Virus record (IMG/VR): IMGVR_UViG_3300031416_000008
Span: 1 to 59,302 of that record
Source of the DNA: a virus
Direction: 5' to 3' (one strand)
Length of the DNA: 59,302 nucleotides
Positions 15,963 through 52,820 of the stretch are shown here, one piece after another. The first letter of the stretch is position 1. Each line of letters opens with the position of its first letter. Position numbers and translations under genes: made by a program. The notes below the pieces were generated by a model. The model ran no database searches and had not been told where the DNA came from. It was given only the letters and a program-made list of their open reading frames with translations.

Positions 15963-16883
15963 ATGAGCGAACGACTGACAGAAGAAGAACTGGCACATAT
16001 GACGCCAGCCGAGCGCGAAGGCTATGAACTCATGCTGGCAGAAGAAACCGAGCAGGATGATGACGCCGACGACGAAAACAATGATGCATTGGATGATGGC
16101 GATGATGACGCCGGCGCCATTGACGACGATCAAGAGCTCGGTACCGATGGATCAGAAACGGGGACTGATGCCGCCGCGCCTGATGAGCAGCTCCAAACGC
16201 AAAGCGATGCGCCTGAACTCGCCGCCGCCGCAGATCACGTCAAGTACCCTTATGAAGCACATAAGACAGTCAGTGACTTAAGAGAGAAAATCGAAGCTAA
16301 CGAAGCTCAGCAGAATGCTTTGCTTGAGCAGTTCGATGACGGTGAACTTACTCGCGAAGAATACCAGGAGCAGCTGAAAACGCTCAACGCCGAAAGCCGA
16401 CAATTCGTAAAGGATCAGGCAAAGGCAGAAACCGCGATTGAAGAAGCTGACGCCCGATATTTTGAGGACGTCGGCACCTTCTTGTCCGAGAACCCGATGT
16501 ATAAAAAGGGCGGGCTACTATACAACGCCCTGGACGAAAAGGTTAAGGAGCTGCAGGCTCAATCCGACGATCCGCGTTCTCCCGCGATCATTAGGGAGGC
16601 CCACAAGCAGATTCAGGACGAGCTGGGGCTCAAATCCGATGCTCCGCCTAAGCCAAAGAGCGACGCAAATCCCGCCAAGCAAACGGCAAAACCTAAGCCG
16701 AAGCGCGAAATTCCTCCAAACCTCAACGGTATCCCATCGTCTGATGTGAATGACGCGGCAGACGATAACGGACGGTTCGCTGTCCTTGCGCGTATGGCTA
16801 AATCTGACCCGCTTGAGCATGAAAAGGCGCTCGCAAAGATGAGCGACGCCGAGATGGATGAATATCTACGGTACGGTGGCTGA
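15963..16883 (+). CDS. Scaffolding protein (acidic, helical)
   Basis: Lies between portal and capsid genes. Asp/Glu-rich N-terminus and coiled-coil middle. Confidence 0.6.
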   Translation: MSERLTEEELAHMTPAEREGYELMLAEETEQDDDADDENNDALDDGDDDAGAIDDDQELGTDGSETGTDAAAPDEQLQTQSDAPELAAAADHVKYPYEAHKTVSDLREKIEANEAQQNALLEQFDDGELTREEYQEQLKTLNAESRQFVKDQAKAETAIEEADARYFEDVGTFLSENPMYKKGGLLYNALDEKVKELQAQSDDPRSPAIIREAHKQIQDELGLKSDAPPKPKSDANPAKQTAKPKPKREIPPNLNGIPSSDVNDAADDNGRFAVLARMAKSDPLEHEKALAKMSDAEMDEYLRYGG

Positions 16884-17077
16884 TGCTGTCACTGTCAGTA
16901 CGGATAGGTCAGGCCGTCCAGATCGGGGAGGCGGCTGTTGTAAAGGTCGAGGACAAGCAGGGCCGTGGCGTCAAGCTTGTGTTTGCGACGGATATTTCCC
17001 CGATACGCATCTTGGATGACGGTGTAATCCCGCCACGATTCACTCGCGGGATTACAGGACGGCCGCGCCCGTATTGA
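16883..17077 (+). CDS. CsrA-like small RNA-binding protein (64 aa)
   Basis: MLSLSVRIGQAVQIGEAAVVKVEDKQGRGVKLVF..ISPIRIL aligns with CsrA [41 protein letters not shown]. TGATG overlap with the scaffold stop. Confidence 0.55.
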   Translation: MLSLSVRIGQAVQIGEAAVVKVEDKQGRGVKLVFATDISPIRILDDGVIPPRFTRGITGRPRPY

Positions 17078-17110: not shown

Positions 17111-17137
17111 AAAGGCCGCAATGTGCGGCCTTTTTGC
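17111..17137 (+). terminator. Rho-independent terminator
   Basis: AAAGGCCGCA-ATG-TGCGGCCTTT followed by further T residues. Confidence 0.75.
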
Positions 17138-17273
17138 GTTTGGAATTTTAACAAATCAGCCACTTGCATATTCTATGCAAAGTACGTATATTACGTAATG
17201 CCAGCAAGAAAGGGAAATGAGCTGGTTTAAATATTACAAGTGGAGTCATTCCCAAAGAGGAAGTTACAAACCG

Positions 17274-17519
17274 ATGAAAACTTACAGCTTCTCAGAAATG
17301 AACCGAGCATCCGGTGACATTCTGGATGCAGCTTTGGCGGAGCCAGTAGCTCTGACAAAAAGAGGAAAGGAGAAACTCATTATCGTTTCCACAGACGTGT
17401 GGGAAAAAGTACTAAATCGCGCAAAATCTAAGGCTTACACCCTAGAGAACGCACCTCAAAACAGCTTCGATCAACTTATGGGAGGACTAGAAGAAAATGT
17501 TCGAAACTCCCCCAGATAG
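17274..17519 (+). CDS. Phd/YefM-type antitoxin
   Basis: MKTYSFSEMNRASGDILDAALAEPVALTKRGKEKLIIVS is the Phd/YefM N-terminal fold signature. Confidence 0.7.
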   Translation: MKTYSFSEMNRASGDILDAALAEPVALTKRGKEKLIIVSTDVWEKVLNRAKSKAYTLENAPQNSFDQLMGGLEENVRNSPR

Positions 17520-17943: not shown

Positions 17944-17973
17944 AAAGCCCCTGCTCAGTCAGGGGCTTTTGTT
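17944..17973. terminator. Bidirectional terminator between convergent genes
   Basis: AAAGCCCCTG-CTCAGT-CAGGGGCTTT, with an A-run upstream and a T-run downstream. Confidence 0.65.
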
Positions 17974-18426: not shown

Positions 18427-18471
18427 GCGCATGACGTGCTTCTGACCGATTAATCCGGAGAACACGTCATG
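18427..18471 (+). promoter_or_regulatory. Late leader element 1: box GCGCATGACGTGC plus start-codon hairpin
   Basis: CATGACGTG (18430-18438) is the reverse complement of CACGTCATG (18463-18471, which includes the ATG). Confidence 0.6.
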
Positions 18472-20804: not shown

Positions 20805-20817
20805 GGTTGGTTAACAA

Positions 20818-22136: not shown

Positions 22137-22142
22137 GGAAAC

Positions 22143-25421: not shown

Positions 25422-25433
25422 TTGACTAAGAGT

Positions 25434-25473
25434 TGAAAGCCCCCTAATTGTTCCGCAAAATCGGGGTCTTTCA
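25434..25473 (+). promoter_or_regulatory. Hairpin abutting the GT25 start codon
   Basis: TGAAAGCCCC pairs with GGGGtCTTTCA. The last A is the A of the ATG. Confidence 0.45.
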
Positions 25474-26258
25474 TGAAATTTTATCTTATCAATCTGGACC
25501 GTTCGACGGACCGACTCTCTTTTATGGCGGAACAGTTTCGCAATCTCGGATTGGAGTATGTGCGTGTTCCAGCAGTTGATGGTCGCGCTTTAACCACTCC
25601 CGAGGTTGAGGCACTCACCGCTGTAGATGATCGATGGAAGGCACCGCTGACGAGATCTGAAATAGGATGTTTTCTCAGTCATCGACGTTGCTTACAACAA
25701 ATTGTCCAAGCTCCAGAACCGTATGCCATCGTTGTGGAAGACGATATTGAATTTGCAGATGATGCCTTAAATTTTTTCAAGGAAATGAGTTGGATTCCTG
25801 ACGATACCGATTTGCTGAAAATTGAGACCAACGGCAAAAAGGTGCTGATAGATACGCCATCAAGTTGCGGTGAGACGCGGTATGCAGTGGCGCGTTTGCG
25901 TTCAACGCACATAATGTCAGCAGGATACATTATCTCAAAAGATGCCGCCGCATTTCTTTTGGCAAGGATGGATAAGATATGGGCTCCAATAGATCAGTTC
26001 ATTTTCAGTGCGGAGCACGGTATTTTTAAAGAACTGACAATCTATCAGTGCACACCTGCAGTATGCAGACAGTTTGGCCTTGAGAGCACGTTGGACAAAG
26101 ATCGGCGTCGTACCTATCAGCGGCCACCATTGCTGCGCAGGCTTTTGCGTGAGATTAAGCGTGCTGGCCGAAGATCACGGACAGGGTTGTGGGGTATTTG
26201 GGTGAATACCAGGACGCGGCAGCAATGGAAGCGCATACCTTTTTATTCCAGCGTTTGA
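25473..26258 (+). CDS. Glycosyltransferase family 25 (LPS/LOS biosynthesis type)
   Basis: INLDRSTDR...VPAVDG..L...........LTRSEIGCFLSH......IVEDDIEF is the GT25 signature. Visibly more AT-rich than neighbouring genes. Confidence 0.8.
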   Translation: MKFYLINLDRSTDRLSFMAEQFRNLGLEYVRVPAVDGRALTTPEVEALTAVDDRWKAPLTRSEIGCFLSHRRCLQQIVQAPEPYAIVVEDDIEFADDALNFFKEMSWIPDDTDLLKIETNGKKVLIDTPSSCGETRYAVARLRSTHIMSAGYIISKDAAAFLLARMDKIWAPIDQFIFSAEHGIFKELTIYQCTPAVCRQFGLESTLDKDRRRTYQRPPLLRRLLREIKRAGRRSRTGLWGIWVNTRTRQQWKRIPFYSSV

Positions 26259-26292
26259 TCGTCACCACTTCGTCTGGTACAAATGCAAATAG

Positions 26293-26327
26293 GCGCATGA
26301 CGTGCCTCTTTCGAGAGGATAGTCATG
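26293..26327 (+). promoter_or_regulatory. Late leader element 2
   Basis: Box at 26293-26305. CATGAC pairs with GTCATG (ATG). Inner CCUCU-UUCG-AGAGG hairpin covers the SD. Confidence 0.6.
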
Positions 26328-28324: not shown

Positions 28325-28734
28325 CTCCAGCAGTTCTTCGCCTCATGTTGCGCCCCACTTTGTCGAAGGTAAAGCTGGGCCCCGAAGATGTAATATCGAT
28401 CGACTTTGCCAATAGACTGCGAGAATGGACAATCACGCGCCATCTGAACGCTGTTTGGACCCATATACCCAACGAGGTTGCTGGCGGCACGAAAAATGCC
28501 GGACTGAGATATTCCATTGCCAAGGCACTTGGGATGATCAGCGGCGCGGCAGATTACGTTTTCTTGTGGGCAGGCGGAAGCGCGGCCATTGAAATGAAAT
28601 CCGAGACGGGGAAGCAAAGCGCGAACCAGACCGATTTCCAGAAGTGGTGCGAGGTGATGAGCGTGCCTTATTACGTTGCCCGATCAGCTGATGAAGCCGA
28701 AAAAATCTTGCGAACGCTTGGAATCCTCAAATGA
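28321..28734 (+). CDS. VRR-NUC domain nuclease
   Basis: GAADYVFLWAGGSAAIEMKSETGKQSANQTDFQKWC...PYYVARSADEA matches VRR-NUC (D..E-x-K..Q). Confidence 0.75.
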   Translation: MTPAVLRLMLRPTLSKVKLGPEDVISIDFANRLREWTITRHLNAVWTHIPNEVAGGTKNAGLRYSIAKALGMISGAADYVFLWAGGSAAIEMKSETGKQSANQTDFQKWCEVMSVPYYVARSADEAEKILRTLGILK

Positions 28735-29156
28735 GCCTTGAATTTGATCATTCGCGCCGCCCGAAATATAGAAACTGGGCCGCAGAGATAATTGGTATTC
28801 GCAATTTCCGGCCGGATGCTGTGACCATCACCGCCTTAAAGGCGGGTGAAATCACCGCCGTCACGGTATTCGATACGTTTTCGGACAATGATTGCCAGAT
28901 CCATGTTGCATCGGATGGTTCGCGAAATTGGCTATCGCGGCAGTACCTGCAGATGGTTTTTGCATATCCCTTTCGACAGTTGGGTTTGCGCCGGCTTACG
29001 TCACTTGTGTCAGTGAACAATGCCGCATCGCTAAGTTTTTGCCAGCAATGCGGCTTTATTCGCGAGGGACAGTTGCGAAAAGCCGCCGAAAGTGGTGAAG
29101 ATTTAGTCCTGTTCGGGATGCTACGCGAAGAATGCCGGTGGCTCCCGCTCTTTTGA
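28731..29156 (+). CDS. GNAT-family N-acetyltransferase
   Basis: QLGLRRLTSLVSVNNAASLSFCQQCGFIREGQLR is the GNAT motif A/B region. Confidence 0.75.
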   Translation: MSLEFDHSRRPKYRNWAAEIIGIRNFRPDAVTITALKAGEITAVTVFDTFSDNDCQIHVASDGSRNWLSRQYLQMVFAYPFRQLGLRRLTSLVSVNNAASLSFCQQCGFIREGQLRKAAESGEDLVLFGMLREECRWLPLF

Positions 29157-29167
29157 GGGAGATAATC

Positions 29168-29449
29168 GTGGGCGCGAATAGTTGGGAAGATGCGGTAAGC
29201 AGCACGGGTTGGGCGCTCGACCCAATGTTTTTTGTGTTTCTCGCATGCCTCGGATTCGCGCTTTGGTTTATCGATCGGAACTCTGAGCGGCTCGGTGACG
29301 CGCTCTTTGCAGGATTTATGTCTTTCGGATTCTGCGCTGCCCCGGTTTTCGCAGCGCTTTTAGCCGTTGGCCTGGCACCCACATATTCAGCGATTGCAGC
29401 GGCAGGCGCTCTTGCCTTTGGCTCTTGGTATCTTTTGTGCAGGCTATAG
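29168..29449 (+). CDS. Small polytopic membrane protein (GTG start preferred)
   Basis: GAGGGAG SD upstream of the GTG at 29168. Three hydrophobic segments. Confidence 0.45.
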   Translation: MGANSWEDAVSSTGWALDPMFFVFLACLGFALWFIDRNSERLGDALFAGFMSFGFCAAPVFAALLAVGLAPTYSAIAAAGALAFGSWYLLCRL

Positions 29450-29487
29450 CGTTCACACCGTAATTTCATTATAAAGGGTCAACCAAG

Positions 29488-29532
29488 GCGCATGATGTGC
29501 TGACACCTGATTAAGTTGAGGTTCACATCATG
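29488..29532 (+). promoter_or_regulatory. Late leader element 3 (covarying copy)
   Basis: Box GCGCATGATGTGC. CATGATGTG (29491-29499) pairs with CACATCATG (29524-29532). Confidence 0.6.
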
Positions 29533-30699
29533 GGTAAAGGTTCGTCCTCCGCTCCCGATCCAGATCCTAATATCGGTAAAGCCGCTCTTAAGCAGGCTGA
29601 AACTGGTGAGCAGTGGCTTGCCTTTTCCAAGGAGTCTTTCGCAGTTTCGCAGGAGCGCCAGAAAGAACTGGACGCCCTGACAAAGCGCGTCACCGAACAA
29701 CAGCTTGGCATCGCCGATCAACAGGCGGCGTGGGCGAAATCCGATCGAGAACGATATGAAAATACGTTTAAACCGATCGAAGATCAGTTCATTCAGGAGG
29801 CGACGAATTACGCCACACCTGAAAAACAGGCCGAGGCGGCAGCGACTGCATCAGCAGACGTGCGCGCGGCGCAGTCGTCGGCACAAGAACAGGGGCTTCG
29901 CCAGTCCGCTTCCCTCGGTATCAACCCAACGTCTGGTCGATACGCTGGAATCGATCGTGCAACTGACATGGCATATTCGCTTGCCGACGCGGGCGCGAAG
30001 AACAATGCCCGTCAGGCAGTACGTGACAAAGGCTTGGCACTTAAGGCCGACGTGGCGAACCTTGGACGCGGATTGCCGGCGCAGTCAGCGCAGGCGCAGT
30101 CTTTGGGGCTGGGAGCCAGCGGTGGGGCACTTGGTCTTAATCAGGGCACCAACGCCCAGTCTATGCAGGCATCCAACATTGTGAACTCCGGCTACGCGGG
30201 CGCGATGCAGGGTTACGCCGGTATGGGTCAGACCCTTAATCAGCAGTATGCTACGCAGGTCAGTGCATGGGAAGCGCAGCAGAAAGCCAATTCCGGTCTA
30301 TTTGGCGGCATCGGCGAAGCTCTTGGCGGTATCGCCGGCATGTTTATGTCGGACGAGAATGTCAAAGAGAACAAGGTGCCTGTTGAAGACGGCAAGGCGC
30401 TGGAAGCCATTGAGAAAATGCCGATCGAAGAATGGGATTACAAGGCAGGCGTTGAGGATGAAGGCCGACACATTGGCACCTATGCGCAAGACTTCCAGAA
30501 AGCGACCGGCAAGGGCGACGGCAAAAGCATTCCTATTATCGATGCAGTAGGAATTACCATGAAGGCCGTGCAGGACGTCTCGAAGAAGGTAGACGGACTC
30601 GCTAAGCAGATTGGCATTGGCGGCGCTAAGAATGCAAAGCCAGCTGCTCCAAAGGCTCGCCCGCGTAACATGGAACTTGGACTGGGAGTTGCAGCATGA
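29530..30699 (+). CDS. Virion protein with C-terminal peptidase S74 intramolecular-chaperone domain
   Basis: SDENVKEN...ALEAIEKMPIEEWDYK....HIGTYAQDF.......IDAVGITMKAVQDV is the S74 autoprocessing signature. Confidence 0.75.
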   Translation: MGKGSSSAPDPDPNIGKAALKQAETGEQWLAFSKESFAVSQERQKELDALTKRVTEQQLGIADQQAAWAKSDRERYENTFKPIEDQFIQEATNYATPEKQAEAAATASADVRAAQSSAQEQGLRQSASLGINPTSGRYAGIDRATDMAYSLADAGAKNNARQAVRDKGLALKADVANLGRGLPAQSAQAQSLGLGASGGALGLNQGTNAQSMQASNIVNSGYAGAMQGYAGMGQTLNQQYATQVSAWEAQQKANSGLFGGIGEALGGIAGMFMSDENVKENKVPVEDGKALEAIEKMPIEEWDYKAGVEDEGRHIGTYAQDFQKATGKGDGKSIPIIDAVGITMKAVQDVSKKVDGLAKQIGIGGAKNAKPAAPKARPRNMELGLGVAA

Positions 30700-31889: not shown

Positions 31890-31938
31890 ACCCTCTCGCG
31901 TACGCGCGCGAAGCTGTATATAGTCGCCGCGTTCCAAT

Positions 31939-31973
31939 GCGCATGACGTGCTAACCGAGCAGGGTACGTCATG
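31939..31973 (+). promoter_or_regulatory. Late leader element 4
   Basis: Box at 31939-31951. CATGACGT (31942-31949) pairs with ACGTCATG (31966-31973). Confidence 0.6.
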
Positions 31974-34900
31974 GCTATTACACTGGATTCAAACGCTGAT
32001 CTTGATGCTTTCTTTGGCTTGGAAAAAGCCGGAAGCAATTCTCCCGCAACAGACAATCGGGAGACTGACGACAAACGTCCGATCCAGTCTGCATCTACAG
32101 AATCCTCGCGTGTGCCCCGTCTCCAACCTATCGGCATAAACTTTGACGCGCCAAAAGCTTCAAATCCGCCCGCCAGCGCGCCCGAAGCTTCAAAGGCTAC
32201 ACAGACTCAAGAAATCCCATCAGCCCCGCAGGCGACCCAGCCAGCGGAAATATCGGGTGTTTCCGCGCGTGATTGGAATGACGCCGTTAATACGATTATC
32301 GCAGAAGCCGGCGGCGACGGCCCTGTCGGTATGCTTGGCGTTGCGAGCACCATTCGCAACCGTGCAAATATTCGAGGCAAGACAATCGGCGATATCGTCC
32401 GCGCCCCAAGCCAGTTTGAAGGCTTTTATGCGCCGGGCCCTAAAGCCGTGGAAGCGCAGAACAATCCGCAGGTGCGCGCAGAAGCCGAGCAGATCCTTCG
32501 TGGTGTTCTAACCGGAGAATTAAGCGATCCGACAAATGGTGCTGACCACTTCCACGCCAACGGTATTAATCCGAAGTGGGCCAGCTCCATGCCGGAAACG
32601 GCGCGAATTGGTGGCCATGTTTTCTACAACTCCAAGCAGGAAGGTGCACCGCGTCAGGTCGCGTCGATGGACCCCGCTATCGGGCTTGATGAGCCGCGCG
32701 GCAATCGTCGCGGTCTTGCGAACCTCGTTCCCGAACAAAAGGAACCGGAAAACACGAAAACCGGCAGCTTGGCGTTCGTCAACCCCGGTCAGGAAAAGAT
32801 CAACCCCGCATTCGCCTCCGTTCTGCAGGACGTTTCCGCTGACATTGGCAAGGGCCTTGTCATCACTTCCGGATACCGATCGCCTACGCATCGGGTGGAA
32901 GCAGCGAAGAAAAAGCCCGGTCAGCATTCACATGGTACAGCTGTCGATATAAGCTTGAAGGGTATGAACGGCCAGCAGCGTTTCGATCTTGTGCAATCGT
33001 TGAAAGCGCGTGGCGTTCGCCGTTTTGGCACCTACTCAAACTCTCCAGATATCATCCACGTCGACATGCTTCCGATGAAGGATTCGAAGGATGGCTTCTG
33101 GTACATGCATAATAAGTCGGTCAATAACATGGGCGGTGCTCCAGATTGGCTAAAAGCAGCGCGCGCAACGCGCGTGAAGCGATATGATGTGCCGCAGGGC
33201 AAGGCTATCGAGGCCGGCGCGGATTTCCGTTTTGATGGCGATCCAGAACCAGTTGCGCAGAAAACACCAGCAACTCCAGAAGTGGAAAGCACTGAGCAGC
33301 CGACCGAAGCTGATCCGATCGACGCGCGCCTCGAAGAACTCAATAAGTCAGAGCCCGGCAAGTACCAGGCAATGACTGAAGACGAATATGCCAAGTGGCG
33401 TGAGGAGTGGGAAGCCAATCAGCCCGGTATTCTACAAGACGTCGCGCGTATGGTCGCCGCTGGGGCTGTCACAGGTACCGCATCAATCATTAAAGGTATT
33501 GGTCGCCTTGATGCAGCCTTCAATGCGAACGTCCTTAATCCACTTTTCGGCACAGAATTTAGCGAAAGCAACGAATACGACGTGCCTGCCGGTTGGGTTG
33601 AGAAGTACGGCGAGGGCATTAAGAAGGGCGTTTCGCAGGCGACCAAAGACGCTATCGAAACCAGTACGCCTGATGGCGATCTATTGGACCCGTCAACTTG
33701 GACGCTCGGTACTAACCCATCGGCAAGGGGCCTTGTTGCCCTAGGGGCTGACGTTTTCGGCTCAATGGTTCCAGTGGTCGCGGCAGCTGTAGCGACCGGC
33801 GGTACGGGCGGATTTATTGCAGGCGGTGCGCAGGGCGCAGGCGGTGCAGAAGATCGGGCCAAGCAGATCATTGATGAGCTCGCAGCAGAGCCCGGCGCGC
33901 TCGAAACTCAGTCTGCTTATTTCCGTGAGCAAATTGCATCCGGAAAATCCCGCGAAGAAGCGATCAAAGCCACTAAGGACGCGGCAGCGAACATTGCGTC
34001 TGTATATGCAGCACCAATTGCGGGTGTTGGTGGCGTACTCACCGGCAAAATTGTTCACCCAGCCACCAATATTCTCGCAAGCAAAGCACTGCCCGCTCGC
34101 ATTGCAGGCCGCGCAGTCGCCGGCGCGTTGGAAGAAGGTTCGCAGGAAGCGCTTGAAACCGTAGGCGCTAACGCTGGCGTCAATCAGGCGATCGGTACTG
34201 ACCTCAACGTCACCGACGGTACATTCGGCGACTTTGTTCTCGGTGCCATGGCGGGCGGCGCTACCGGTGCTGCAGGTGGCGTCACCAGCCGCAGATCAGC
34301 ACCCCAGAGCGAAGCAGCCACGGAAACTCCAGCGGCGGCTCCAGCTTCCGACCCAGTACAGACAACGGCTCCAGAACCACAGGACACACCACAGCGCAAA
34401 GGCCCGCTTTCGCGCGCGTTCGAGGAATCCGCGTCACGTACTGATCTCGAATACGTCGTCAACGATCCAGATATCGATGGTAGCGGGCCCGGCGAAATTC
34501 ACGGTCAGACTGTTCAGATATCGGCCAATCAGGATCGGGTGCCAGCAGGGATGCGCCGCGTCATCGATCAGAGCGGCGTAGAACGCGTCATTGGCGATCG
34601 GGTACTGATGCCTTTGACACAAGCGCAGGAAGCCGGAATCCGTCCAGCCGATCGCACTACTGCGACAAGCGTCCAGTCAGGTAAAGGCGCTCCAACCGTC
34701 GGGTCAACAGTTAATGTTACTTTGCCAGACGGCAGCTCCATTCGCGGCACAGTTGATAGTTACGCCGATGGTGAAGCGGTTATCACTGATGAAGTCGGCG
34801 AAGTGTTTCAGGTTCCGGTTTCGTCTATCGCCGCTCTAGAGGCCGCAGCAGCTGTGAAACCGGGCCAGCTTCCAACCGATGCACTGCCGGAGCGTGATGC

Positions 34901-37900
34901 AGACGCGCAGGACGAGTTGCCAGCGCAACCACCAATGGCTTCCGAAACCACTGTCGAAGAAGACGTTGCGCCCGTCGATCGGCAGAAGAATATTGTTTCC
35001 GCTGAAAACGCGCCCAAGGTTGGCCAGAGCGTTATTGTAAATGCGCCTGGCTTAAAGCGGGTTACCGGCAAGATCGAACAGTACGTTTACGAGGACGAAG
35101 AATACCAGGCTATCGTTCGCGAGAGCGGCGGCATGACAATTCAGGTTCCGATCGAGCATCTGTTTGTCGATTCTACGACCAATAAGCAGGCCGATGCGGA
35201 GGAGTTGCGCAGGAATCCGCCTGTTGATCGTCCTGACATTGACCCCAACGAACCGCGTGTCCGTAAATTTGGAGACAAGGCGGTCCGTCTGCCCGATGAT
35301 GAGTCACAGCGTATATTCGATCTTGGTCAAAACCGGGCGATGGCCAAGCGCCTGCTGGGTACGTCTGAACTTGATAAAGATCGAGCAGCTGTGCCGGCAC
35401 AAAAAGCGCTGGCTGATGAACTTGGTATTTCTTTTGAAGACGCCGGCAAGCTGGCTGATGATTATCGGTACCGCGTCGAAAAAGCCGGTAAGCAGGCACG
35501 ATCGAAACTACCTGTCGAAATGCACTCAGTTAATCCCGTCATGCTCGATCGGATGCGCAAGCGGGTAGAAAGTCAGACAACAGCCGAGCCGGCGCCCGCA
35601 GTCACAGAAGTTTCGGTTGAAGCTGCTGAACCGGTATCGAAAGTCGAAACGCCACAGGTAACGGGCACCGACACAGAGACATGGTACAATTCCATGTCAG
35701 AAACAGATCGTGCCGCCACGCTTGCCAAATCGGGCATTAAGCGCTCGCCGAAAGCACCATTCGATAAGCTGTCGCCGAAAATCCAGCAGACGTTGAATAA
35801 GCAGCGTCAGGTTGAAAGCGAAGCACAGCAAGCCCCGATCGACATTGCGGCCGTACAAGCAGCGACGCATCCGGACAACGACATTGCGGAACCGACGCTC
35901 GCGCAGAAAGAAGCCGGAAATTATGCCAAGGGCCATGTGCGTTTAGGTGGCATGGATTTGTCGATCGAAAATCCAGCGGGCTCCGAACGCAAAGGCGTAG
36001 ATGCCACCGGCAAAGAGTGGTCCACAACGATGCAGGGCCACTACGGCTACATCAAAGGCACCATTGGCCGCGACAAAGACCACATCGACGTTTTTGTTAA
36101 GCCGGGCACCGCTGACGTTTCCGACACAGCGCCGGTTTTCGTGGTTGACCAGAAAAACCCAGACAATGGCCGATTTGACGAACATAAGGTCATGATCGGT
36201 TATGATAGCCAGCAGGAAGCCGAAGCAGCATATTTGGCGAACTATACGCCTGGTTGGAAAGGCATGGGCGACGTTACAGAAACAAGCCTTGCCAACTTCC
36301 GGAAATGGACCAAAGATGGCGACACCACAAAAGCTTTCGCTCCGAAGTGGTTTGGCACGCGAGAAAAGGCAGATGCCTACGTCGCGAAGAACAACCTTTC
36401 AGATACGCACTCTGTCGTAGAAAACGGCAAGCGCTTTGAAGTCCGTCAGGCTTCCGACAATGCTGCACAAACTGCAAAACCGGCGAATAATATTCAAAAT
36501 CGTTCCAACAACGATTTGGAACGCTTGAAAAACGATTACCGCCGCCAAGTTGCCGAGGCTCCTTTCGCTGACGTTTGGGGATCAGATCGCGAGCCCGTTT
36601 ATGACGCACTGTCACAGCTGGCGGAAAAATCGCCGCTAAAAGACAGGGAGATTGTTTACGCGGTACGTGAAAATGCCAGTGATGCGGACCTCTTGAGTGC
36701 AGCTGCTCGGACGTTCGGCGTTGGCGGCGCTGGCGGCAACAAGTACATGGTTGAAACCCGCGAAGGGCCGACTGTCACTGTCACGTTAGAAAAAGATAGT
36801 GGGCCAGAAAAGATTGTCCTCAAGGGCAAAAAGCTGGCTGACACTCTGCGGCGCGAATTTACCCGTACCGTAGAGGAAATGCGTGAAGATGCGATACGCG
36901 CGGGAAAAACGCGCGCATTCATCGACAAGAAAAAGGCGGAACACAGAGAAAAGACTGCGAGCAAAAATAGCAGTGCGTTGGTGGGTGAGCCGCTTCCCAC
37001 GCGCGGTGTTGCGCCCGCCAATATAGGTAGTGACGGCAATACCTACGTCGGAAAGCCCGGCGGTGTTCATTTCGAGATTAAAAGGCCTGACGGCGTGGAA
37101 TGGACCGATATCGGTTTTGTAAATCCATCCGGTCAATTCCTTGATCGCAAACAAGCGTTTGAATGGGTCGAGCAGAATGAACAGCGTGTCCGCCCCTCAG
37201 ACAATATGGACGCATCCCTCGATGCGCTCGATTATCGTGAGCAGGTTCCAGAGCGAGTGCGAAAGTCGGGCAAAAAAAACGCAGAAAAGCTCGACACCCT
37301 AATCGACACTGGTCAGCTGACCGCCGCATCCGATTGGGGCGCTTCCAATAAATTAGTTTCACGCGATCGAGCAGATGAAATACGTAAGAAGCTCCGCGCG
37401 AAACTGAATGGTCAGATAAATTCGGGCATTGATCCGGAAATTCTAGCGCTGGGAACCGAGCTCGCGGCATTCCACATCGAGGCCGGTGCGCGTAAGTTTA
37501 CAGACTTTGCACGCGCTGTTGCTGTAGACATGGACGCAAGCATTGAAAAGCTTCGCCCATTCCTACGGGCGTGGTATAACGGCGCGCGCGACATGATGGA
37601 GGATTCCGGGCTTGATATTTCAGGCACCGATGATGCCAATGCTGTAAAGAGCGCACTCGCAACGCTAAAGGACGTGGACGATGGAAGCCTTTCAAAACTG
37701 GAAACGAGAAGCGGAGCTGCATTGGAAGCAGTTTCAGCCGAACCGTTACAAGGAACTGAAAGCGGGCGGAAAGCTCGATCAGGCGTTGACCGAAGCGGCC
37801 AATCAGACAGCACTGGAAATGAACCAGCTGACGGAAAGCGGCTTCCAGCCGGACGAAGCGTTTCAGATGGTGAGACAGAACTATCTGTTCCCGCCAGAGG

Positions 37901-40900
37901 AAGGCAGCGAAATGAGCGTACCAGAAATGGGCCAGACCTCTTTGAGCGAGCAGATGACAAACGCAGTCCGGAAGGGCAGCAGGACAATGGACCTGTAGGC
38001 GAAAAGCCGCTTTCCGACTCCGTAAATCCCGAGAAACGTGTATCGCCGGACGATTCAGCAGCCACACCTGCACATAATCGTCCGGATGGGTTCACCATTA
38101 CGGATGAAGATGCAATCGGCGCTGGCGGACCAAAAACCAAGTTCCGCAATAACGTTGATGCCATCAAGCTTCTTCGAAAGCTCACAGAAGAAGGTCGGAC
38201 GGCGAGTCACGCAGAACAGAAGGTTCTTGCGAAATGGGTAGGCTGGGGCGGTTTGCAGCAAGCATTCGTGCGTCCGGACGGTTCCAAGGCCAAAGGCTGG
38301 GAAAAAGAAGCTGATAGTCTCAAGGAACTGCTCACGCCCGAAGAATACCGCGCGGCAGAAGCCTCAACCCGCAACGCCCATTACACCGCACCTGAAATCA
38401 CCAAAGCTATTTGGAAGGTTGCGCAGCGGCTTGGTTTCCGTGGTGGTCGCGTGCTTGAGCCTTCCGTTGGTTCAGGTAATTTCCTCGGACTGGCTCCGGG
38501 AGAACTGAAACACCGCGCGCAGTTTACCGGCGCGGAATTAGACCATATTACGGGTGGCATCGCGCAGCAGCTCTATCCGGCAGCTAACATCAAAGCTCCT
38601 GTGGGTTTTCAGGAGTTGCAGATCCCGGACAATTATTTTGAGTTGGCCGTTGGCAATCCGCCATTTGGCAGTGAACGCCTTTACGACGCGCAGCGCAAGG
38701 AAGCTGCGAAATTCTCCATACATAATTACTTCTTTGCAAAATCCGTCGACACATTGAAGCCGGGCGGAATTTTGTCGATGGTAATCACAAACTCATTCCT
38801 TGATGCGGCAAAGTCCGCAGCACGTCGATACATCGCGGAACGTGCCCGGCTCGTCGGTGCAATTCGTCTGCCGAACAACGCCTTCCTTGCGAACGCTGGA
38901 ACGGAAGTCACTACCGATATCGTCGTTCTTCAAAAATACCCAGAAGGCACTGCACAGGCGGACAAGGATTTCTCTTGGGTTGACGTCGGCAATTATCGTG
39001 ACGCGCAAGGGCGCGACACGCCGCTTAATCAGTATTTTGTCAGCAATCCCGATATGATGCTGGGCGACTTCGGCCGCTACGGCACAATGTATGGCCCAGA
39101 GCAGCCCGCGCTTATTTCGCGTAACGGCGATAATCTTTCGTCCCTGCTCGACAAGGCTATTAATTCGTTGCCGGCTGAAATTATGCCGACACGAACGATT
39201 GAGGAAATAACAGAGTCCGCGGTAAAGCGGGAACTCGATCCCGTCGCTGTGCCCGTCGGCTCTTTTGTTACCGACGCGGATGGGAATATTTCGGTGCGAG
39301 CCCCAGACCTGTTGGGGGAAACACGCGTTATCCCGCGTGCTGATATTACCGGTAAAGATAAGCAGCGCATTTCCGGACTTGTGGCGCTTCGCGACATATT
39401 CACCAACTTGCGCCGCGCTCAGATCGATCCGAACAGCACTGACGCTCAGTTGAATGCGCAGCGCCAATCGCTGAACGAAGCCTATGATGCTCTGACGAAA
39501 GAGTTTGGCCCGATAAACAGCGAAATGAACCGCCGGGCATTTCAAGATGATCCAACATGGCCGCAAGTTTCGGCGTTGGAAATTTCCTATGACAAAGGCC
39601 TCACACGTGAAGCCGCTAAAAAGACTGGCGAAACACCACGTAAACCGAGCGCGGTAAAGGCTCCAATATTTGAGCGCCGCACGCAAGAACCATACAGCCG
39701 TCCGCAGACTGCAAACACCGCAAAAGACGCGCTTGCTATTGCTATGTCGGAATCGGGCTTTGTGGACATGGCTCGCGTTCTTGATCTTTACCGCAAGCCT
39801 GTTTCAGAAGTTGTCGCAGAGCTCGGCGATCAAATCTACATGGCACCGGATGGCGGATTTCAAACCGCCGATATTTATCTATCCGGAAATGTGAAACAGA
39901 AGCTCGCCCGCGCCGAAGAAGCAGCAAAGCTTGATCCAGCCTTTGAGCGAAACGTTTTGGCGCTCCGTGACAAAATTCCGGCCGACATTGATCCAGTTGA
40001 TATCGATGTAAAGGCTGGCGCACCTTGGATACCGGGTTCCGATATCGCTGATTTTATCCGCGATACGCTTGAGACAAGTCATGCCAGGGCAATTTATTCC
40101 CGTGGAACGGCTCGTTGGGAGCTAGATGCGGGACGAGCAAGCGACGTTGCACAGGCGAGGTGGGGAACACCTGATGCATCTGCACGTCAGGTTGTTGAAG
40201 CGGCCCTGAATGCGCGCACAATAACAATCAGCCATAAAAATGCAGACGGTTCCGTCACGGTAGACGAAGCCGCGACTGACGCTGCAAATCAGAAGGTGGA
40301 AGCGGTTAAAAACGAGTGGAAACGCTGGATTTGGGACAACGATGCCCGCCGCGAAAAGCTTTCCCGTCTCTACAACGATACGTACAACACCCACGTCGAT
40401 ACCGTCTATGATGGTTCGCATTTGATTTTGCCAGGCAAAGTCAGCGATGACGTTGTTGAATTACGTCCGCATCAGAAATCATTTATCTGGCGCGTTTTGC
40501 AGTCGTCGACCACTCTTGCCGACCATACAGTCGGTGCCGGTAAAACGTTCGCGGCGATCGGTGCGGTTATGGAACTTCGCCGCACCGGGCAGGCAAAAAA
40601 ACCGATGGTCGTCGTGCCTAACCATCTTGTGCAACAGTGGTCAGCTGATTTTATCAAGTTGTATCCGGGCGCAAATATTCTCGCGGCGACCAAGAAAGAT
40701 TTTGAAGCTGGCAACCGGAAGCGTTTCTTTGCGCGCGTCGCAGCAGGTGACTATGACGCCGTTGTGGTTGCACATTCGTCTTTCGGGCTCATCGGTGTTG
40801 ATCCGATGTTTGAGCGCGACTTCCTGCAAATGCAGGTGGCCGATATTGAAGACTCCATTCGCACGCTTGAGGAAGCGGAAGGCAAATCCAGCCGTAGCGT

Positions 40901-43900
40901 AAAGCAAATGGCAAAGCAGCGGGAAACCATTCAGACCCGTATGCAGAAGCTTCTGGATGCTGGAAGCAAAGACACCGGGATGACGTTTGAAGAAATGGGC
41001 GTAGACGCTCTTTTCGTGGACGAAGCCCATGAATTTAAAAATCTCGGTTTCTCAACATCGATGACGCGTGTTGCCGGGCTCGGTAACAAAGACGGCTCGA
41101 AAAAAGCCGCTGACCTGTTCATGAAAATTCAAAGCGTCATGAAGCGCACCGGCGGACGAAATGTCGTGTTCCTGACAGGAACACCGATATCGAACACAAT
41201 GGCCGAGCTCTACACGATGCAGCGCTATCTTGCCTATGATGCGTTGAAAGCGCAGGGCGTGGCGCATTTTGATGCTTGGGCGCGGGTATTCGGCGAAGTC
41301 GTAACAGACTTTGAACTGTCGGCTTCTGGTAAATACAAGCTCACTACGCGTTTCTCGCGCTTTGTGAACATGCCAGAGCTCGTAACGCAGTATCGCGTGT
41401 TTGCAGACACCATCACAAACGATGATATCCGCAGGCAACTTGCCGAGCGCGGTAAAACCCTTCCTCTGCCACGGGTCAAGGGTGACAAGCCTACCGCGAA
41501 CGTCGTTGAACCATCTGAATACCAGACCGACTTTATCGGCAATCCAACCGTGGATGAAAACGGGATCGAGCACTATCCGAGTGGCTCGATTGTCTGGCGC
41601 TCTGAAAATCTGCCTAAGAAGGCGGAGAAGGGCGCGGATAACATGCTCAAAGTCACTTCTGATGCCCGTAAGGCGGCGCTCGATATGCGTCTGATTGATC
41701 CTGAATATCCGGACTTTGCGGGTTCGAAGGTTCACAAAGCCGCAGACAATATCAAAAGCATTTATGACCGCTGGCACAATCAGAAAGGCACCCAGCTGGT
41801 ATTCATCGACCTATCCACCCCAAAAAAGGCGGTGGCCAAGGCACGCGCAGAATTGCTTGAGCTCCAGCGCAAAGCGGATGCCGGCGACGAAGCGGCACAG
41901 ACGAAGCTGGATAACATCAGCCTGGACGAAATTGCAGCGTTGGAATCGTCATTCTCCGTCTACGACGATCTAAAGGCAAAATTGATATCGCGTGGTGTTC
42001 CTGAAAAGGAAATCGCCTTCATTCACGATGCCAATACCGACCTGCAAAAGCAGGAGCTTTTCGGGAAAGTTCGTTCCGGACAGGTTCGTGTGTTGTTCGG
42101 CTCGACGCCAAAGATGGGCGCTGGAACAAACGTTCAGAACCGTCTTGTTGGACTTCATCATCTGGATGCACCGTGGCGCCCAAGCGACCTTGAACAGCGT
42201 GAAGGCCGCATCATCCGTCAAGGCAATGAATTATATGCTCTCGATCCGGACGGTTTCGAGGTTGAAATTCACCGCTACGCCACCAAGCGGACGCTGGACG
42301 CCAAACAGTGGCAGACGATCGAGCAAAAAGCACGTTTCATTGGTCAATTCCGCGCCGGAAATGTGAAAGAGCGCGCCGTAGAGGATATCGGAGGAGAGGC
42401 GGCAAACTCTGCCGAGATGAAAGCTGCAGCTTCTGGCAATCCGCTCATCCTGGAGGAGATGGAGCTCCGCCGCAAGGTGAAGCGTCTCGAAAACGAGAGC
42501 AGGGAACACGAACGCGGGCAACACTCGACGTCTCGCAATATTCGCGAGCTCGAAAATGAGCAGACGGAAATCAACGAGCGTTCCGAGGCGTTGGCACAAG
42601 ACGCAGATGCAGCGAAAAAATACCTTGCTGGTGAGTTTTCTGCCACGATCAATGGAAAGAGTTTCGAGAAGGCTGGCGATGCCGGCGCAGAAATTCTTGA
42701 TGTTGCACGCGATATGATTACCAGTGGCGCAACAAGTCGCGCTGTGGGCTCCGTTGGCCCGTTCCGTGTAACGCTGCAAAAAGGTTTGGCATCCTCTTTC
42801 CAGATCACGCTCAAGGGTGCGCGGGAATACGACATAAGTTTGCCTGATGTCGGTGAGCTAACGCCTGTGGGCGCATTCATGCGCGTGATGACACCTATTA
42901 GAAATCTGCCTGAACGTCCGGCCTTTGATCAGGAACGGCTATCGACGATAGCGAAAACGCTACCACGACTGAAAGGCGAGCTTTCTGAATGGCAAGGCAG
43001 AGCGGAACTCGACGAGACGCGACAGAAGCACAATAATATCCTTGCCGCCTTGCGTCCTAAAAAGAAGGACGCGCCGACCGTTGAAATTGAAAAAGCCGCA
43101 GAACAGCCGAAAGCCTCAATCGTCGATCGCGAACCAGTAGCACGTTTGACAGGCGAAGAAGTTCTGCCTGGATTCACACCAGACAAAGACATGGGCGCAT
43201 TAATTCGGGCCGCGTCACGTTGGTATAGTGAAAACCTGCAAGGCACGACGACAAAAACCCGCGATGGGGTCACGGTTGATTTTATCCAGAAGGGTAGAGG
43301 CAAAACCACGTCGCGATCAAAAGGCGATAAACTTTTGCGCGCTATCCCTGCTATCCGGGATATTATCGAAAAGGGCGAAGTCGTTCATCGAGAAGCGGGT
43401 ACAAAGGCGAACGTCCTCAATCGAGTAATAATTGCAGCGCCCGTTGAACTGGCCGGTGAAACGCTTCATCTGGCTATTTCTCTGCACGAAACAAACGCAA
43501 AAACCTACCAGTATGACTTCACGTTCAACCGTGAGGCATATCAAGATAGTGATCGAGCTTCCGTTGGAAGTCTTGACGGAGAGACGTGGGTAAATCACGA
43601 AGGGCTTGCCACCCGCGAAGGCGCGCTACCTAGCTTAGAAGTGCCGCTGTCCGCCAAGACAGATATTAATCTAGTCGAATGGACGCCAAAAATCAATAAT
43701 TCTGAGTCCGACGCGCTCCGCACGGCATTGCAGCGTGGCGAATTTGGCACAGAGGTAAATCGCCTGCTCGATAATGGCGCGATCGAGATCGGCAATATTT
43801 CCGATGAAAACGTGCAAGCATGGACACGTCCTGACGGCACGATAGTCCTGAATAGTGCCGTTCTAGCGCCACAAAACGCCAACGCTGTGTTGCTCCACGA

Positions 43901-46900
43901 GGCGTTCCATTCGGGCACGAAGCGCCTTATTGGGACGCGCGCGTGGAATGCGCTTATCTCCGATCTTGGCGATATTCGTGATCGATTTGAGCGTTCGACG
44001 GGTAAAGCTCGTCAGTTCTTCGAGCGAGCATCGCAGCGTGTCAAAACGGCCGAAAACCGTACTGGCAAAAAAATGGACGATAGTTTGTCCGCAGAAGAAT
44101 TTGGCGCGTACGCGATTGAGGAATACGAAAACGCTCCCCGCACCATCAGAATGTGGGCCGACAAAATGGTCGGGGCAATGAAGGCTTGGGCTCTCCGTCG
44201 GTTTGGGAAGCAAATTGGTGAAGTCACGCCTGCACAGCTTCGCGCTCTTGCTGTTGCGGCTCTCAAATCTAGCACTACCGAGCCAAATGGCCCGCGCGGC
44301 GGCTCTGACCTCACGACAACCAATGACAAATATTCATTGGTCAAGTCGCCGAAGACAGAAGACGTGCGCAACGCGGTGGATTCCATGAAAGGAAGGCTGA
44401 CCGACCTTACCCCGCAAGCCTTGGCTCTGATCCCGCTCAATTATTTCACCGAGCTCGCACAGAAAGGTCATACGGCTATTGCCGATTACCTGACTGTGAA
44501 AAGGCAGCTCGACTCTTACCGTGGACGTCGGAATGAACAAGCCGATAAGATCGTGCAGCAATGGCGCAAATATAATCGGCTTGGCAAAGAGCGTGCGCAA
44601 GACATGGCCGATATCATGCATGAGGCGACGATTGCTGGATATGACCCGTCGATCGAGAACGACGCAGCTGATATCGCAAAAAATCGCTCCCTGCAGGCGA
44701 AGTATGACGCGTTGCCAGAAGCTGGAAAGCAGCTCTATGACACCGTGCGCAACAGCTATCTCGAACAATCGCGCGAGCTCGATGGCATAATTGTCGATAA
44801 TCTGAAAAAGGTCTTTCAGATAGCGCAGAACAAGGCCGAGCGGAAATACCGTAAGCAGCTTGAACAGCTCTCCAAACAGCGCATGGCCCCAGCCGATCGG
44901 AAAAAAGCCGAAGACGATGCACATGCAGCGTACGAGTCCACGACCATGAAGGCTAAATGGTCGATGAAAGCTCGTCTCACAAAAATGCGCCAGGCGCTCG
45001 AAAGCGACCGCTTGGATGGGCCATATTTCCCGCTTGCTCGCTTTGGCGACTATTTCGTCACAGTGAAAGATATCGACGGGCAGGTGATGCATTTCTCGCT
45101 GCATGAACGCAGTGCCGATCGGGACCGCGAAGCGGCTGATCTTCGCAAGCAGTATCCAAATGCTGATGTGATCGTTGGCATCAAGACAAACAGCGCGGAT
45201 CTTCGACAGGCGATGGACCCACGAGTAATTGCGGATATTCAGGCAATCATCGGTCAATCGAATATCGATAGTGACGTGGGCGCGGAAATGCTCGACCAAA
45301 TCTGGCAGCGGTATTTGCAAACAATGCCTGACATGTCGATCAGAAAGCGGCAAATTCACAGGAAGAAGACTGGCGGCTATACGTCGGACGCGTTGCGGGC
45401 CTACGCGTCTCATATGTTCCATGCCGCCCACCAGATGGGCCGACTTAAATATGGGGTGGAGCTTAATGAGCTCGTTAACACCGCTGCGGAACAATCGCAG
45501 GAAATGGCTAACCCGACGAAAGCGGGTATGCTGTCGAATGAATTGGGCAAACGCCATAAGTGGGTAATGAACCCAACAGGCTCGCGCTTTGCGCAGGCGA
45601 TCAACAGCACTGCATTCGTTTGGTATCTGGCAGCAACGCCCGCAGCCGCCCTTGTGAACCTGTCGCAAACGCCAATGCTGGGTATTCCTATTATGGGCGC
45701 CCGTTTCGGCACGGCCAAAGCTACAGCGGCGCTCTTGCGCGCGTCCGGCGACCTATTCCGGGGCAAGGGCAGCGTTCAGCACAAAAACCTCACAGCTGAT
45801 GAGCAATCAGCGCTTAATGACTTCTACGAGTCGGGCCTGATCGATCGCACACAGTCACACGACCTTGCCGGCGTTGGTGACACCGGTGTGAACTATTCTC
45901 CGTGGCGGGCATCTGTCATGGCGAAGATTTCATACCTCTTCCACAAAGCGGAAGTGATTAATCGCGAAGTCACAGCGCTGGCTGCATACCGTCTGGCGCG
46001 CGATAGCGGTATGCGGACAGGAAAAGCTGTTGAAGTCGCTCACGATCTTACGTGGAGAACGCATTTTGATTACTCGAATAGCAGCCGTCCACGCATCATG
46101 CAGAACGACTTCGCGAAGGTCGCGCTCGTTTTCCGCTCATATTCCGTGAATATGATTTATCGCATCACGCGTGACTTGCACCAATCAATGAAGGCAGAAA
46201 GCCCACAGGCGCGCAAGGAAGCGCTCTACCAGCTTTCCGGGGTATTGGGCATGATGAGCCTCATGAGCGGCGCCACGGGCGTATTTGGCTTCAATGCGGC
46301 TATGATGATCCTTGGTATGTTCTTCGGTGGCGATGACGATCCGTTCGATTTCGAGCAGAAAGTTGCAGCAGCTGTTGTCGATACTCTCGGACCGACAATG
46401 GGCGGCATGGTGCTCAAAGGCCCTCTCGGACATTTGGCTGGGATTGATCTTACCAACCGCATAGGCATGGCCGATATCTGGTTTAGATCGCCCAACCGCG
46501 ACCTGGACGGACAGGACGAGTTTCAATACTGGGTAATGAACTCTCTTGGTGCTTCCGTCAGTATGGCAGGCGATGCTTGGAAGGGTGCGAGCAGCATCCT
46601 GAAAGGCGATATCGCCCGTGGAACTGAATACCTGGTACCGAAGGCCATCCGAGATCCGATGAAGGCTTATCGCTATGGAAGCGAGGGTGTGAAATCGGCT
46701 CTCGGAGACGAAGTGATCCCTGTCGATAACATTTCATGGGGCGACGTGGTGCGTCAGGGCGTTGGCTTTACGCCGGCGAAAGTATCGGAAGCGTGGTCAC
46801 GCTCCAGTGCGCTGAAAAATGCAGAGAGCCGCATTAATGCCAAGCGTCGGCAGCTGATGAATGAATTTGCAACGGCCGTTGAAATGAAAGACGTTGAAAC

Positions 46901-50553: not shown

Positions 50554-51585
50554 TCAGTCTCCCGCTTTATCCGTTTCTGATTTCCGGAAGGCCTCATAGA
50601 GCCCTTCCAAATTGTTCGATATCCATTCGCCGAAGGCACGGCCGTTCGGGTTGGCAAAATCCATCGAAAGTGTTTTTCCTTTTGTCTTTGCGACGACGCG
50701 CACAGAACGATCGGATGGCACCCACTGTTTACTCGGAATTGATTTTACCAAAACCGGCTTTGGCGCGGTCAACGACGTAAGCAGCAACGTGAGCCTCTGG
50801 TCGGTGTCAGCTTCGGAAAATTCCTTGCTCTCAATAAAGGCAAACGCTACAGCGCGGTTTGCATCTTCGCGCAGGTATTGGGCAAGCTTATACCAAGTGT
50901 CGCGCCCATAGTTTGGAGCGGCACCAACAGCTCTTACGACTTTTTCAGGAATATCGTTCGCTACTGAAAGCAATTTCGACGTGTTAGTTTTGTCGATCGA
51001 GAGTGAAGCCATTACGACTTCGCGGTCGTACCCGCTGTCGATCAAGTTTTTCGCAAACATCGCCTTTTCGATGAACGACAGGTTTGCGCGAGCGCTGTTC
51101 TCCTGCCCTTGAGCTATAACATGATCCCGGTCAGACAAATTTTTAACAACTGCCCTGACGGGTCTTTGCAAAGCTTTGGCAGCACGCAAGCGACGATGGC
51201 CAAAAACGACCATGTAGCGCCCTTCCCTTTCGGGATGAGGGCGAACCAAGATTGGGGAGTCCTGTCCCCTCTCCCGCACTGCTTCCACCAGCTCGGCAAA
51301 TGCTTCACCGTCAGTTCCTAACCGATCCTCAATAAACGATACGTCAACGAGGTCTGTTGCCAGCTCGACAACGGTGGAACCTTCGAGAAGTTTAGCCTCA
51401 ATGTCCTTGGCGGCTTTTGCCTGCTCCGCAAGATCATCAATCGATTTTGTTATGGCTCCGAACGCACCACGCGAGCGGTTACGTTCCATCGCTGGAGAAA
51501 GCTTCTCAGGAGCGTCGTTTTGTTCAGAGTTGACGGCCGTCAACTTTCGCTCAGTGAGGGATGATAAAAGATTTTTTCGCGACAT
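50554..51585 (-). CDS. repB: RepB (ParB-family partition protein of repABC-type replicons)
   Basis: MSRKNLLSSL N-terminus and ParB box LVRPHPEREGRYMVVFGHRRLRAAK. TAATG overlap with repA. Confidence 0.9.
   Translation of the reverse strand: MSRKNLLSSLTERKLTAVNSEQNDAPEKLSPAMERNRSRGAFGAITKSIDDLAEQAKAAKDIEAKLLEGSTVVELATDLVDVSFIEDRLGTDGEAFAELVEAVRERGQDSPILVRPHPEREGRYMVVFGHRRLRAAKALQRPVRAVVKNLSDRDHVIAQGQENSARANLSFIEKAMFAKNLIDSGYDREVVMASLSIDKTNTSKLLSVANDIPEKVVRAVGAAPNYGRDTWYKLAQYLREDANRAVAFAFIESKEFSEADTDQRLTLLLTSLTAPKPVLVKSIPSKQWVPSDRSVRVVAKTKGKTLSMDFANPNGRAFGEWISNNLEGLYEAFRKSETDKAGD
51529..51544. promoter_or_regulatory. Intragenic parS palindrome inside the repB 5' coding region
   Basis: GTTGACGGCCGTCAAC encodes KLTAVN of RepB. 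Confidence 0.7.
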
Positions 51586-52820
51586 TAACGCCCCCACGCT
51601 CGATGAATGAGAGTTATGATTTCGTCGTTCACACGGTGCAGAGCTTCCATGGCACGGTCATACGTCGAGCGTGTAAACTGCGCGCGCTCAATCTCGTAGA
51701 GAGTTTGTTTGGTAATTCCCGCGTCGGAGATTGCCGTGCTTTTGAGCATTTCATTGACGAGCACATGTTGCTTGAAGATAGAACGCATAAACGCGACCAT
51801 CTGGTTTTGCGGCCCGTCAGTAGGCTCGTACCTTGTGACCATGTATCGAAGCCAGTCTAAACGCATATTCGCCCCTGCCCGCTTCAACGTGCCCATTACC
51901 TCCCCAAGCATCAGAAGAAACTGGCACATGGACATTACGTCCAACATTTGTGGATGGACAGTAATCAGAATACCCGACGATGACGAAAGCGCAGTCAGTG
52001 TCAGATAACCCAGCTGTGGCGGACAATCGATAATCACTACGTCGTATTGGTCGGATACGTCGCTCAGGGCTTCATCCAACCTGCCAAAAAACATGCGCCC
52101 AATCGCGCCATCCTTCTGTGCCAGGGCAAGCGGCGTATCGTACTCGAACTCTTGCAGTTCGAGATTTGCCGGCACGATATCCAAGCCGGGAAAATTCGTT
52201 GATCGAACAAGAGTAGACAGTGGCTTGCGTTCGTCATCATAGCGCAGAGCTTCATAGAGAGACTCATTGCGATCAATTTCCGGTTGGAATCCATGCAGGG
52301 CGGAAAGTGAAGCCTGTGGATCTAGATCAATAGCCAGTACGCGGTGGCCGGTAAGCGCAAGGTGCTGTGCCAAATGAGCAGCGGACGTTGTCTTAGCACT
52401 GCCACCTTTGAAATTGACGACAGAAATTACCTGCAGATGATCATCATCACGACGATGTGGAACATACTTTCCGGGCGCCCGGCTGTTCTTATCAAGGAAT
52501 TGACGCAGCTCAAGCATTTGTTGCGCGGTGTATGAGCGCCGTCCGGATGAGGTAACGAGCGGTGCGGGCCCCTTCCCTTCCAGCGATAAATTTTTCAGGT
52601 AGCCGGCCGTGACACCGAGATACTGCGCTGCTTCAGTGAGCTGGAACGGGCGCAGTGTTTTTTGAGCGTCTGGTGGGAACATTTCAAGACGATGCTCATG
52701 CAGCATTTCCGACAGCTCATTAGCCTGCTGGGTTATAAGCAGATCGACTTCGGATATTGCGTCTGTGATGCTTCCTGCAACATTCATCGATATTTTCCAC
52801 ACATGCGGTTTTTTTGCCAT
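51585..52820 (-). CDS. repA: RepA (ParA-family ATPase of repABC-type replicons)
   Basis: Deviant Walker A NFKGGSAKTT. About 100-aa N-terminal HTH extension. 411 aa, typical of RepA. Confidence 0.9.
   Translation of the reverse strand: MAKKPHVWKISMNVAGSITDAISEVDLLITQQANELSEMLHEHRLEMFPPDAQKTLRPFQLTEAAQYLGVTAGYLKNLSLEGKGPAPLVTSSGRRSYTAQQMLELRQFLDKNSRAPGKYVPHRRDDDHLQVISVVNFKGGSAKTTSAAHLAQHLALTGHRVLAIDLDPQASLSALHGFQPEIDRNESLYEALRYDDERKPLSTLVRSTNFPGLDIVPANLELQEFEYDTPLALAQKDGAIGRMFFGRLDEALSDVSDQYDVVIIDCPPQLGYLTLTALSSSSGILITVHPQMLDVMSMCQFLLMLGEVMGTLKRAGANMRLDWLRYMVTRYEPTDGPQNQMVAFMRSIFKQHVLVNEMLKSTAISDAGITKQTLYEIERAQFTRSTYDRAMEALHRVNDEIITLIHRAWGR

Follow-up and report, generated by a model that had tools for sequence, protein, structure and literature searches.

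The 59,302-nt stretch of viral DNA analyzed here (IMG/VR record IMGVR_UViG_3300031416_000008, hereafter the window) carries a short repeated box upstream of several genes, and a single copy differs from the others. The original prediction held that this change, C to T at 29496, is matched by a change in the arm next to the start codon, and that the unequal loop lengths argue against a fixed-spacing protein dyad and for base pairing. Megablast and tblastn placed the window next to Ochrobactrum phage POI1126 (Namazuvirus), with about 74% nucleotide identity over the matched part of the structural module. POI1126 is a temperate podovirus whose prophage replicates as a plasmid (PMC5492332). The window encodes a small terminase subunit, a P22-like portal, an N4-gp56-type capsid protein, a tail fiber with an endosialidase-chaperone domain, a DarB-like ORF, and a GH108 endolysin, and its structural module is of the Bcep22/PBC5/GP4/933W type. 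A ParA-like ATPase and a RepB/ParB partition pair are consistent with a complete or nearly complete phage-plasmid of about 59 kb, like POI1126.

The observation was confirmed. The 13-nt box, GCGCATGAYGTGC, sits at the start of five late-gene leaders, for the capsid, internal virion, tail-fiber, DarB-like, and endolysin genes. The 13-mer GCGCATGACGTGC occurs in four of these leaders, and the variant GCGCATGATGTGC occurs only in the tail-fiber leader (copy 3), where T29496 pairs with A29527. All five copies lie on the + strand, 19 to 31 nt upstream of the start codons. When up to 2 mismatches were allowed, the pattern gave 17 matches in the window, against 6.2 +/- 2.7 in shuffled sequences, and 0 of 100 shuffles reached 17. 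Loop lengths were as predicted, with 24 nt in copy 1 and 24 nt in copy 3. Copy 4 has 16 nt for the 8-bp Watson-Crick helix, or 14 nt if the terminal G.U pair is counted. The coordinates of these and associated features are collected in the table.

Table. Coordinates within the window of the leader elements, the candidate partner gene, and neighboring features.
Position	Strand	Feature	Details
29488..29500	+	Box copy 3, tail-fiber leader	GCGCATGATGTGC; T at box position 9
29491..29499	+	5' arm of the box/start-region helix	CATGATGTG
29524..29532	+	3' arm of the box/start-region helix	CACATCATG; includes the tail-fiber start codon (29530-29532)
29518..29521	+	Shine-Dalgarno-like GAGG	inside the enclosed loop
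29470..29475	+	-10-like hexamer TATAAA	12 nt before the box
18427..18471	+	Leader 1, major capsid protein	box 18427-18439; helix CATGACGTG (18430-18438) with CACGTCATG (18463-18471); start codon at 18469
26293..26327	+	Leader 2, 580-aa internal virion protein	box 26293-26305; CATGAC with GTCATG (26322-26327), 6 bp; inner CCUCU-UUCG-AGAGG hairpin (26305-26318)
31939..31973	+	Leader 4, 5042-aa DarB-like protein	box 31939-31951; arm TACGTCATG (31965-31973), 8 Watson-Crick pairs plus a G.U pair
47188..47234	+	Leader 5, GH108 endolysin	box 47188-47200; weaker pairing of GTGCA (47197-47201) with TGCAC (47223-47227); start codon at 47232
16883..17077	+	Gene for a 64-aa CsrA-family protein, candidate trans-acting partner of the box	ATG overlaps the stop codon of the scaffold-like gene
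17217..17519		Phd/YefM-type antitoxin ORF	Pfam 31.1 bits
17533..17937		Unassigned 134-aa ORF	
17111..17140		Terminator-like hairpin	approximate position
17944..17969		Terminator-like hairpin	approximate position
25473..26258		Family-25 glycosyltransferase gene	LPS biosynthesis type; just upstream of box 2
31895..31913		Inverted repeat CTCGCG-N6-CGCGAA	at the place of a -35 element
31919..31924		TATAGT	DarB-like leader promoter
31971..47099		5042-aa DarB-like ORF	
50554..52820	-	ParA-like ATPase and RepB/ParB partition pair	

To determine whether the box is predicted to pair with the start region, each leader was folded with RNAfold. All five leaders formed one hairpin in which the box pairs with the start region, with energies of -19.6, -19.7, -19.5, -18.8, and -13.9 kcal/mol and z-scores against shuffles of -4.0, -4.2, -2.75, -3.1, and -0.76, respectively. 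The z-score of -0.76 is that of the endolysin leader. In leader 2, the box helix is short, but the inner hairpin is an anti-SD/SD pairing closed by a UUCG tetraloop, so both the SD and the AUG are sequestered in this leader. The 3' half of the box pairs with the start codon and the SD-to-AUG spacer, giving a hairpin of about -19 kcal/mol that should block ribosome binding.

We next compared the leaders of close relatives. POI1126 and five further relatives (L002, L006-L008, and L021, about 74-93% related) have boxes at the same gene positions wherever those positions lie in the sequence retrieved. Their tail-fiber boxes all keep U, and the arm reads CACAUCAUG, CGCAUCAUG, or CGCGUCAUG, which gives U-A or U.G pairs. 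Only L006, with CGCACCAUG, has a mismatch (A.C). In the DarB-like leader, arm position -6 is C or U opposite G, and position -5 is A or G opposite U. Four of the five variable arm positions therefore keep pairing through wobble, whereas the loops change freely. Within this clade, however, the double substitution is a single event, inherited from before the split from POI1126, and box position 9 toggles between C and U in leader 2 of relatives without any arm change (a U.G pair).

Stronger evidence came from distant phages, in which box and arm differ together. The pairs observed were CAUGAGUGC/GCACUCAUG (PBC5 and a Shinella prophage), GUGU/ACAC (PBC5 gp19), GGAUGUGC/GCACAUCC (and GCAUAUCU with two G.U pairs), GGAGUGCC/GGCACUCC, GAGGUGCC/GGCAUCUC (JC1), GAGUGUUC/GAGCACUC (Gerry), GUGCGA/UUGCAC, GUGCUG/CAGCAC, and CGCAGGA/UCCUGCG. 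The last pair is found in the tail-fiber leader of L091, another relative, where the arm next to the AUG pairs with the 5' half of the box and not the 3' half, so that the GGA itself is sequestered.

To test this pairing without assuming a register, duplex energies were compared. Box/own-start duplexes averaged -12.2 kcal/mol, against -6.3 kcal/mol for 518 start regions of genes without a box. The own box type was the best partner, out of 18 types, in 20 of 52 leaders, where about 3 would be expected. When box variants were permuted among non-redundant leaders, the mean own-pair energy was -9.55 kcal/mol against -7.86 +/- 0.30 kcal/mol with 40 units (p<=5e-5) and -11.4 kcal/mol against -8.88 +/- 0.30 kcal/mol with 57 units (p<=2e-5). 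Additionally, 50 of the 57 minimum-energy folds pair the box with the start region. A fixed-register count on 34 leaders was only weakly above its controls, with 70.9% of cells paired against 22-54% for slid controls, one covarying pair, and 35/500 and 28/500 shuffles as high, because lineages use shifted registers and bulges. These results support the original interpretation of selection on RNA base pairing, mainly through sequences from outside the window.

A -10-like hexamer lies 5-24 nt upstream of the box, mostly 10-14 nt (48 of 55 leaders with at least 4 of 6 matches), and TATAA(A/C/G) is kept in the tail-fiber leaders of distant relatives. The box is therefore probably at the very 5' end of the mRNA, starting near +5 in the tail-fiber leader, as inferred only from these hexamers. 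A consensus sigma-70 and terminator scan was uninformative for these promoters. This geometry argues against an escape of the T4-lysozyme type by a start site inside the helix, since both arms should be transcribed. An upstream ORF or leaderless start at the AUG inside the box was also rejected, as the U is not conserved (position 6 is any base) and the mini-ORFs differ or run in frame. A Q/ops-like elongation-control site was considered, without a formal test, and judged unlikely because promoter spacing varies and there are five separate promoters.

The 5' part of the box, GCGCA-N-GA, hardly takes part in the long helix, yet it is invariant in phages of Ochrobactrum, Sinorhizobium, Agrobacterium, Roseobacter, Burkholderia, Ralstonia, Pseudomonas, and Serratia. 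Alone, the box is predicted to form a GCGC/GUGC hairpin with an A-N-G-A(-Y) loop, and every box variant folds at -3.1 to -4.0 kcal/mol. Copy 3 folds as a 5-bp hairpin with a UGA triloop. RNAalifold on 30 tail-fiber leaders returned exactly this hairpin, with no pair broken and only G.U to G-C or G-C to G.U changes. It recovered only this local hairpin, again because of the shifted registers and bulges. The hairpin resembles a CsrA/Rsm binding site. In many relatives the loop reads AGGA(U), and GCGCAGGAUGUGC shares GGAUGU with the CsrA SELEX consensus RUACARGGAUGU (PMC4347634). However, the first G of the GGA that is invariant in canonical CsrA sites is not conserved here. All five window boxes have UGA, relatives have GGA, AGA, UGA, or CGA, and position 6 is A, G, or C in three leaders of a single phage (L015), so the motif is not a canonical CsrA site. 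No Rfam (release 15) family matched at gathering thresholds in the whole window, and only two chance-level hits appeared elsewhere in 18300-32100 at E<=5.

Six-frame ORFs of the window and of the retrieved loci were searched with E. coli CsrA and then with the phage hits, which revealed a small CsrA-like ORF directly after the scaffold-like gene. It is the last gene of the terminase-portal-scaffold unit, which has no box. The window protein matched Pfam CsrA (PF02599) at E=2e-4, over profile positions 1-34 of 53, but its 21.7 bits fall below the gathering threshold of 27 bits. The relative at L039 scored 38.7 bits, above the cutoff. The subfamily comprises 59 representative clusters, and 37 of 52 members matched PF02599 at E<=0.01. 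A profile of 52 subfamily representatives hit RsmE 2JPP at E=2.4e-8, as well as CsrA 1Y00, 2BTI, and 1VPZ, and a 14-phage profile hit RsmE 2JPP at E=2.2e-9. The equivalent of the RNA-binding residue R44 is ambiguous in the alignments, and a single-sequence AlphaFold model (pLDDT 57.6) was of too low confidence for a fold search. Notably, the subfamily has a conserved C-terminal extension, GxIPxRF..GItG, that is absent from bacterial CsrA and may be a partner-binding tail.

A CsrA-like gene was found in every box-bearing relative whose portal-to-capsid region was in the sequence examined, although an insertion and the contig end leave this open in L011. A CsrA-like gene in scaffold-CsrA synteny and a box in the capsid leader occur together in the Ochrobactrum clade (including POI1126 gp06), PBC5 (gp26), Atu_ph08 (gp17), a Roseobacter prophage, many IMG/VR contigs, JC1, Itty13, Gerry, and Parlo. 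Searches for related loci with PBC5 gp26 and with the portal returned only PBC5 itself and six mostly close relatives, respectively, so this gene could not be assessed in L009, L010, and L015. Three relatives with no CsrA-like gene in the retrieved portal-to-capsid region, VT2-Sakai, Vibrio D80, and Paracoccus KLEP18-1, have no box. The same gene family in the same position, between the scaffold-like gene and the capsid gene, is annotated as a CsrA moron in Bcep22-like phages (JC1 gp47, CSP3 orf23, Itty13 gp22, and Parlo 062). Published work treats it as a host-directed accessory gene of unknown function (PMC9144972, PMC10269572, PMC7366521), and in the papers that could be searched we found neither the box sequence nor a cis target in the phage genome. 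S. meliloti and Burkholderia hosts are reported to lack chromosomal csrA (PMC7366521).

Based on these results, we tentatively propose that the CsrA-like protein activates late translation. In the window, all late transcription units carry the box except the terminase-portal-scaffold-CsrA unit. We infer that the protein binds the small hairpin as it emerges from the polymerase, before the 3' arm is made, which keeps the start region open and licenses translation of the capsid, internal virion, tail-fiber, DarB-like, and lysis genes only after the head-assembly operon has been expressed. The two structures exclude each other, and the long helix is about 16 kcal/mol more stable than the small hairpin, so activation would need kinetic (co-transcriptional) capture. 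In this model, U29496 lengthens the small hairpin by an A-U pair, and A29527 restores a Watson-Crick pair in the long helix. Positive control by CsrA has precedents in flhDC, through 5'-end protection, and moaA, through leader remodeling (PMC4347634), although those are host genes regulated by host CsrA at GGA sites. The link between protein and box is correlative, resting on co-occurrence within one phage lineage and on motif resemblance without binding, probing, or expression data. If confirmed, it would give the phage CsrA genes a role on the phage's own late mRNAs, add a translational tier to late-gene timing in a widespread group of podophages and phage-plasmids, and show a CsrA-family protein with changed sequence specificity. 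Even without the protein link, the leader helix is a well-supported new RNA structure that is absent from Rfam.

The main rival, which we consider less likely, is that the same protein represses or buffers translation, as classical CsrA does, by binding the box hairpin and perhaps a second site near the SD. Such feedback on structural-protein synthesis could be comparable to B. subtilis CsrA-FliW-flagellin, although no FliW-like partner has been identified. Most known CsrA targets are repressed (PMC4347634), and an upstream hairpin site 15-35 nt before the SD is the usual layout of repressed leaders. In the capsid leaders of the relatives L033, L035, L036, L044, L047 (Itty13), and L049 (Parlo), an outer helix (for example, GUGCU/AGCAC or GCGCC/GGCGC) abuts the AUG and an inner helix (ACGUGCGG/CCGCACGU) lies before the SD, leaving GCGCA-N-GA unpaired opposite the SD, an arrangement that fits repression equally well. 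In JC1, only the capsid leader, directly downstream of csrA, has a box, and a CsrA peptide was detected in JC1 virions (PMC9144972). On the other hand, a conserved, covarying helix that already hides the start codon is hard to explain if the protein also blocks it, and most SD sequences in these leaders lack GGA (GAGG, AAGG, AGGG). Repressing the most abundantly needed proteins by a protein made in the same late phase would also need an unknown antagonist.

It is similarly doubtful, though possible, that the helix works without a dedicated phage protein, as a 5'-terminal stabilizing stem-loop, as an attenuator opened by ribosomes or helicases, or through a host factor. GCGCA-N-GA would then reflect promoter-proximal constraints, and the CsrA-like gene would be unrelated. 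The helix is well supported on its own, the box starts within a few nucleotides of the predicted 5' end, and it is not a canonical GGA site. However, an 8-nt sequence that is invariant in phages of alpha-, beta-, and gammaproteobacteria at variable distance from the -10 hexamer implies a conserved factor that travels with the phage, box and CsrA-like gene co-occurred wherever the relevant region was sampled, and a -19 kcal/mol hairpin over the capsid AUG needs some mechanism of relief. A double-stranded DNA operator for a dimeric transcription factor, with the start-codon arm as a second partial site or a coincidence, is very unlikely: although the T variant is nearly palindromic and the boxes lie just downstream of -10-like hexamers at five late promoters, the dyad is only partial, the arm covaries with the box in distant phages, arm substitutions are mainly those tolerated as G.U pairs in RNA, box orientation always follows the gene (including at divergent capsid/endolysin promoters), spacing and loop length vary, and the arm lacks the GC flanks of the box.

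A more speculative and unlikely possibility is an assembly-coupled checkpoint analogous to CsrA-FliW-flagellin, in which the conserved C-terminal tail would bind scaffold, portal, or procapsids, so that free protein reports assembly state and sets translation of capsid, tail, and lysis mRNAs. This would be a dedicated viral post-transcriptional regulon built from a bacterial global regulator with altered RNA specificity (A-N-G-A instead of A-N-GGA).

The surroundings of the leaders also carry additional features. The antitoxin ORF and the unassigned ORF inserted between the CsrA-like gene and the capsid leader are flanked by terminator-like hairpins and are probably a toxin-antitoxin moron, and POI1126 has different small genes at this position. 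The glycosyltransferase gene inside the tail/virion module is probably a lysogenic-conversion moron. The DarB-like ORF, annotated in relatives as a DarB-like antirestriction or PLxRFG-domain protein, takes up a quarter of the genome and has its own box leader. The inverted repeat at its promoter is a perfect CTCGCG...CGCGAG in POI1126 and L021, is conserved in relatives, and could be an operator specific to this promoter.
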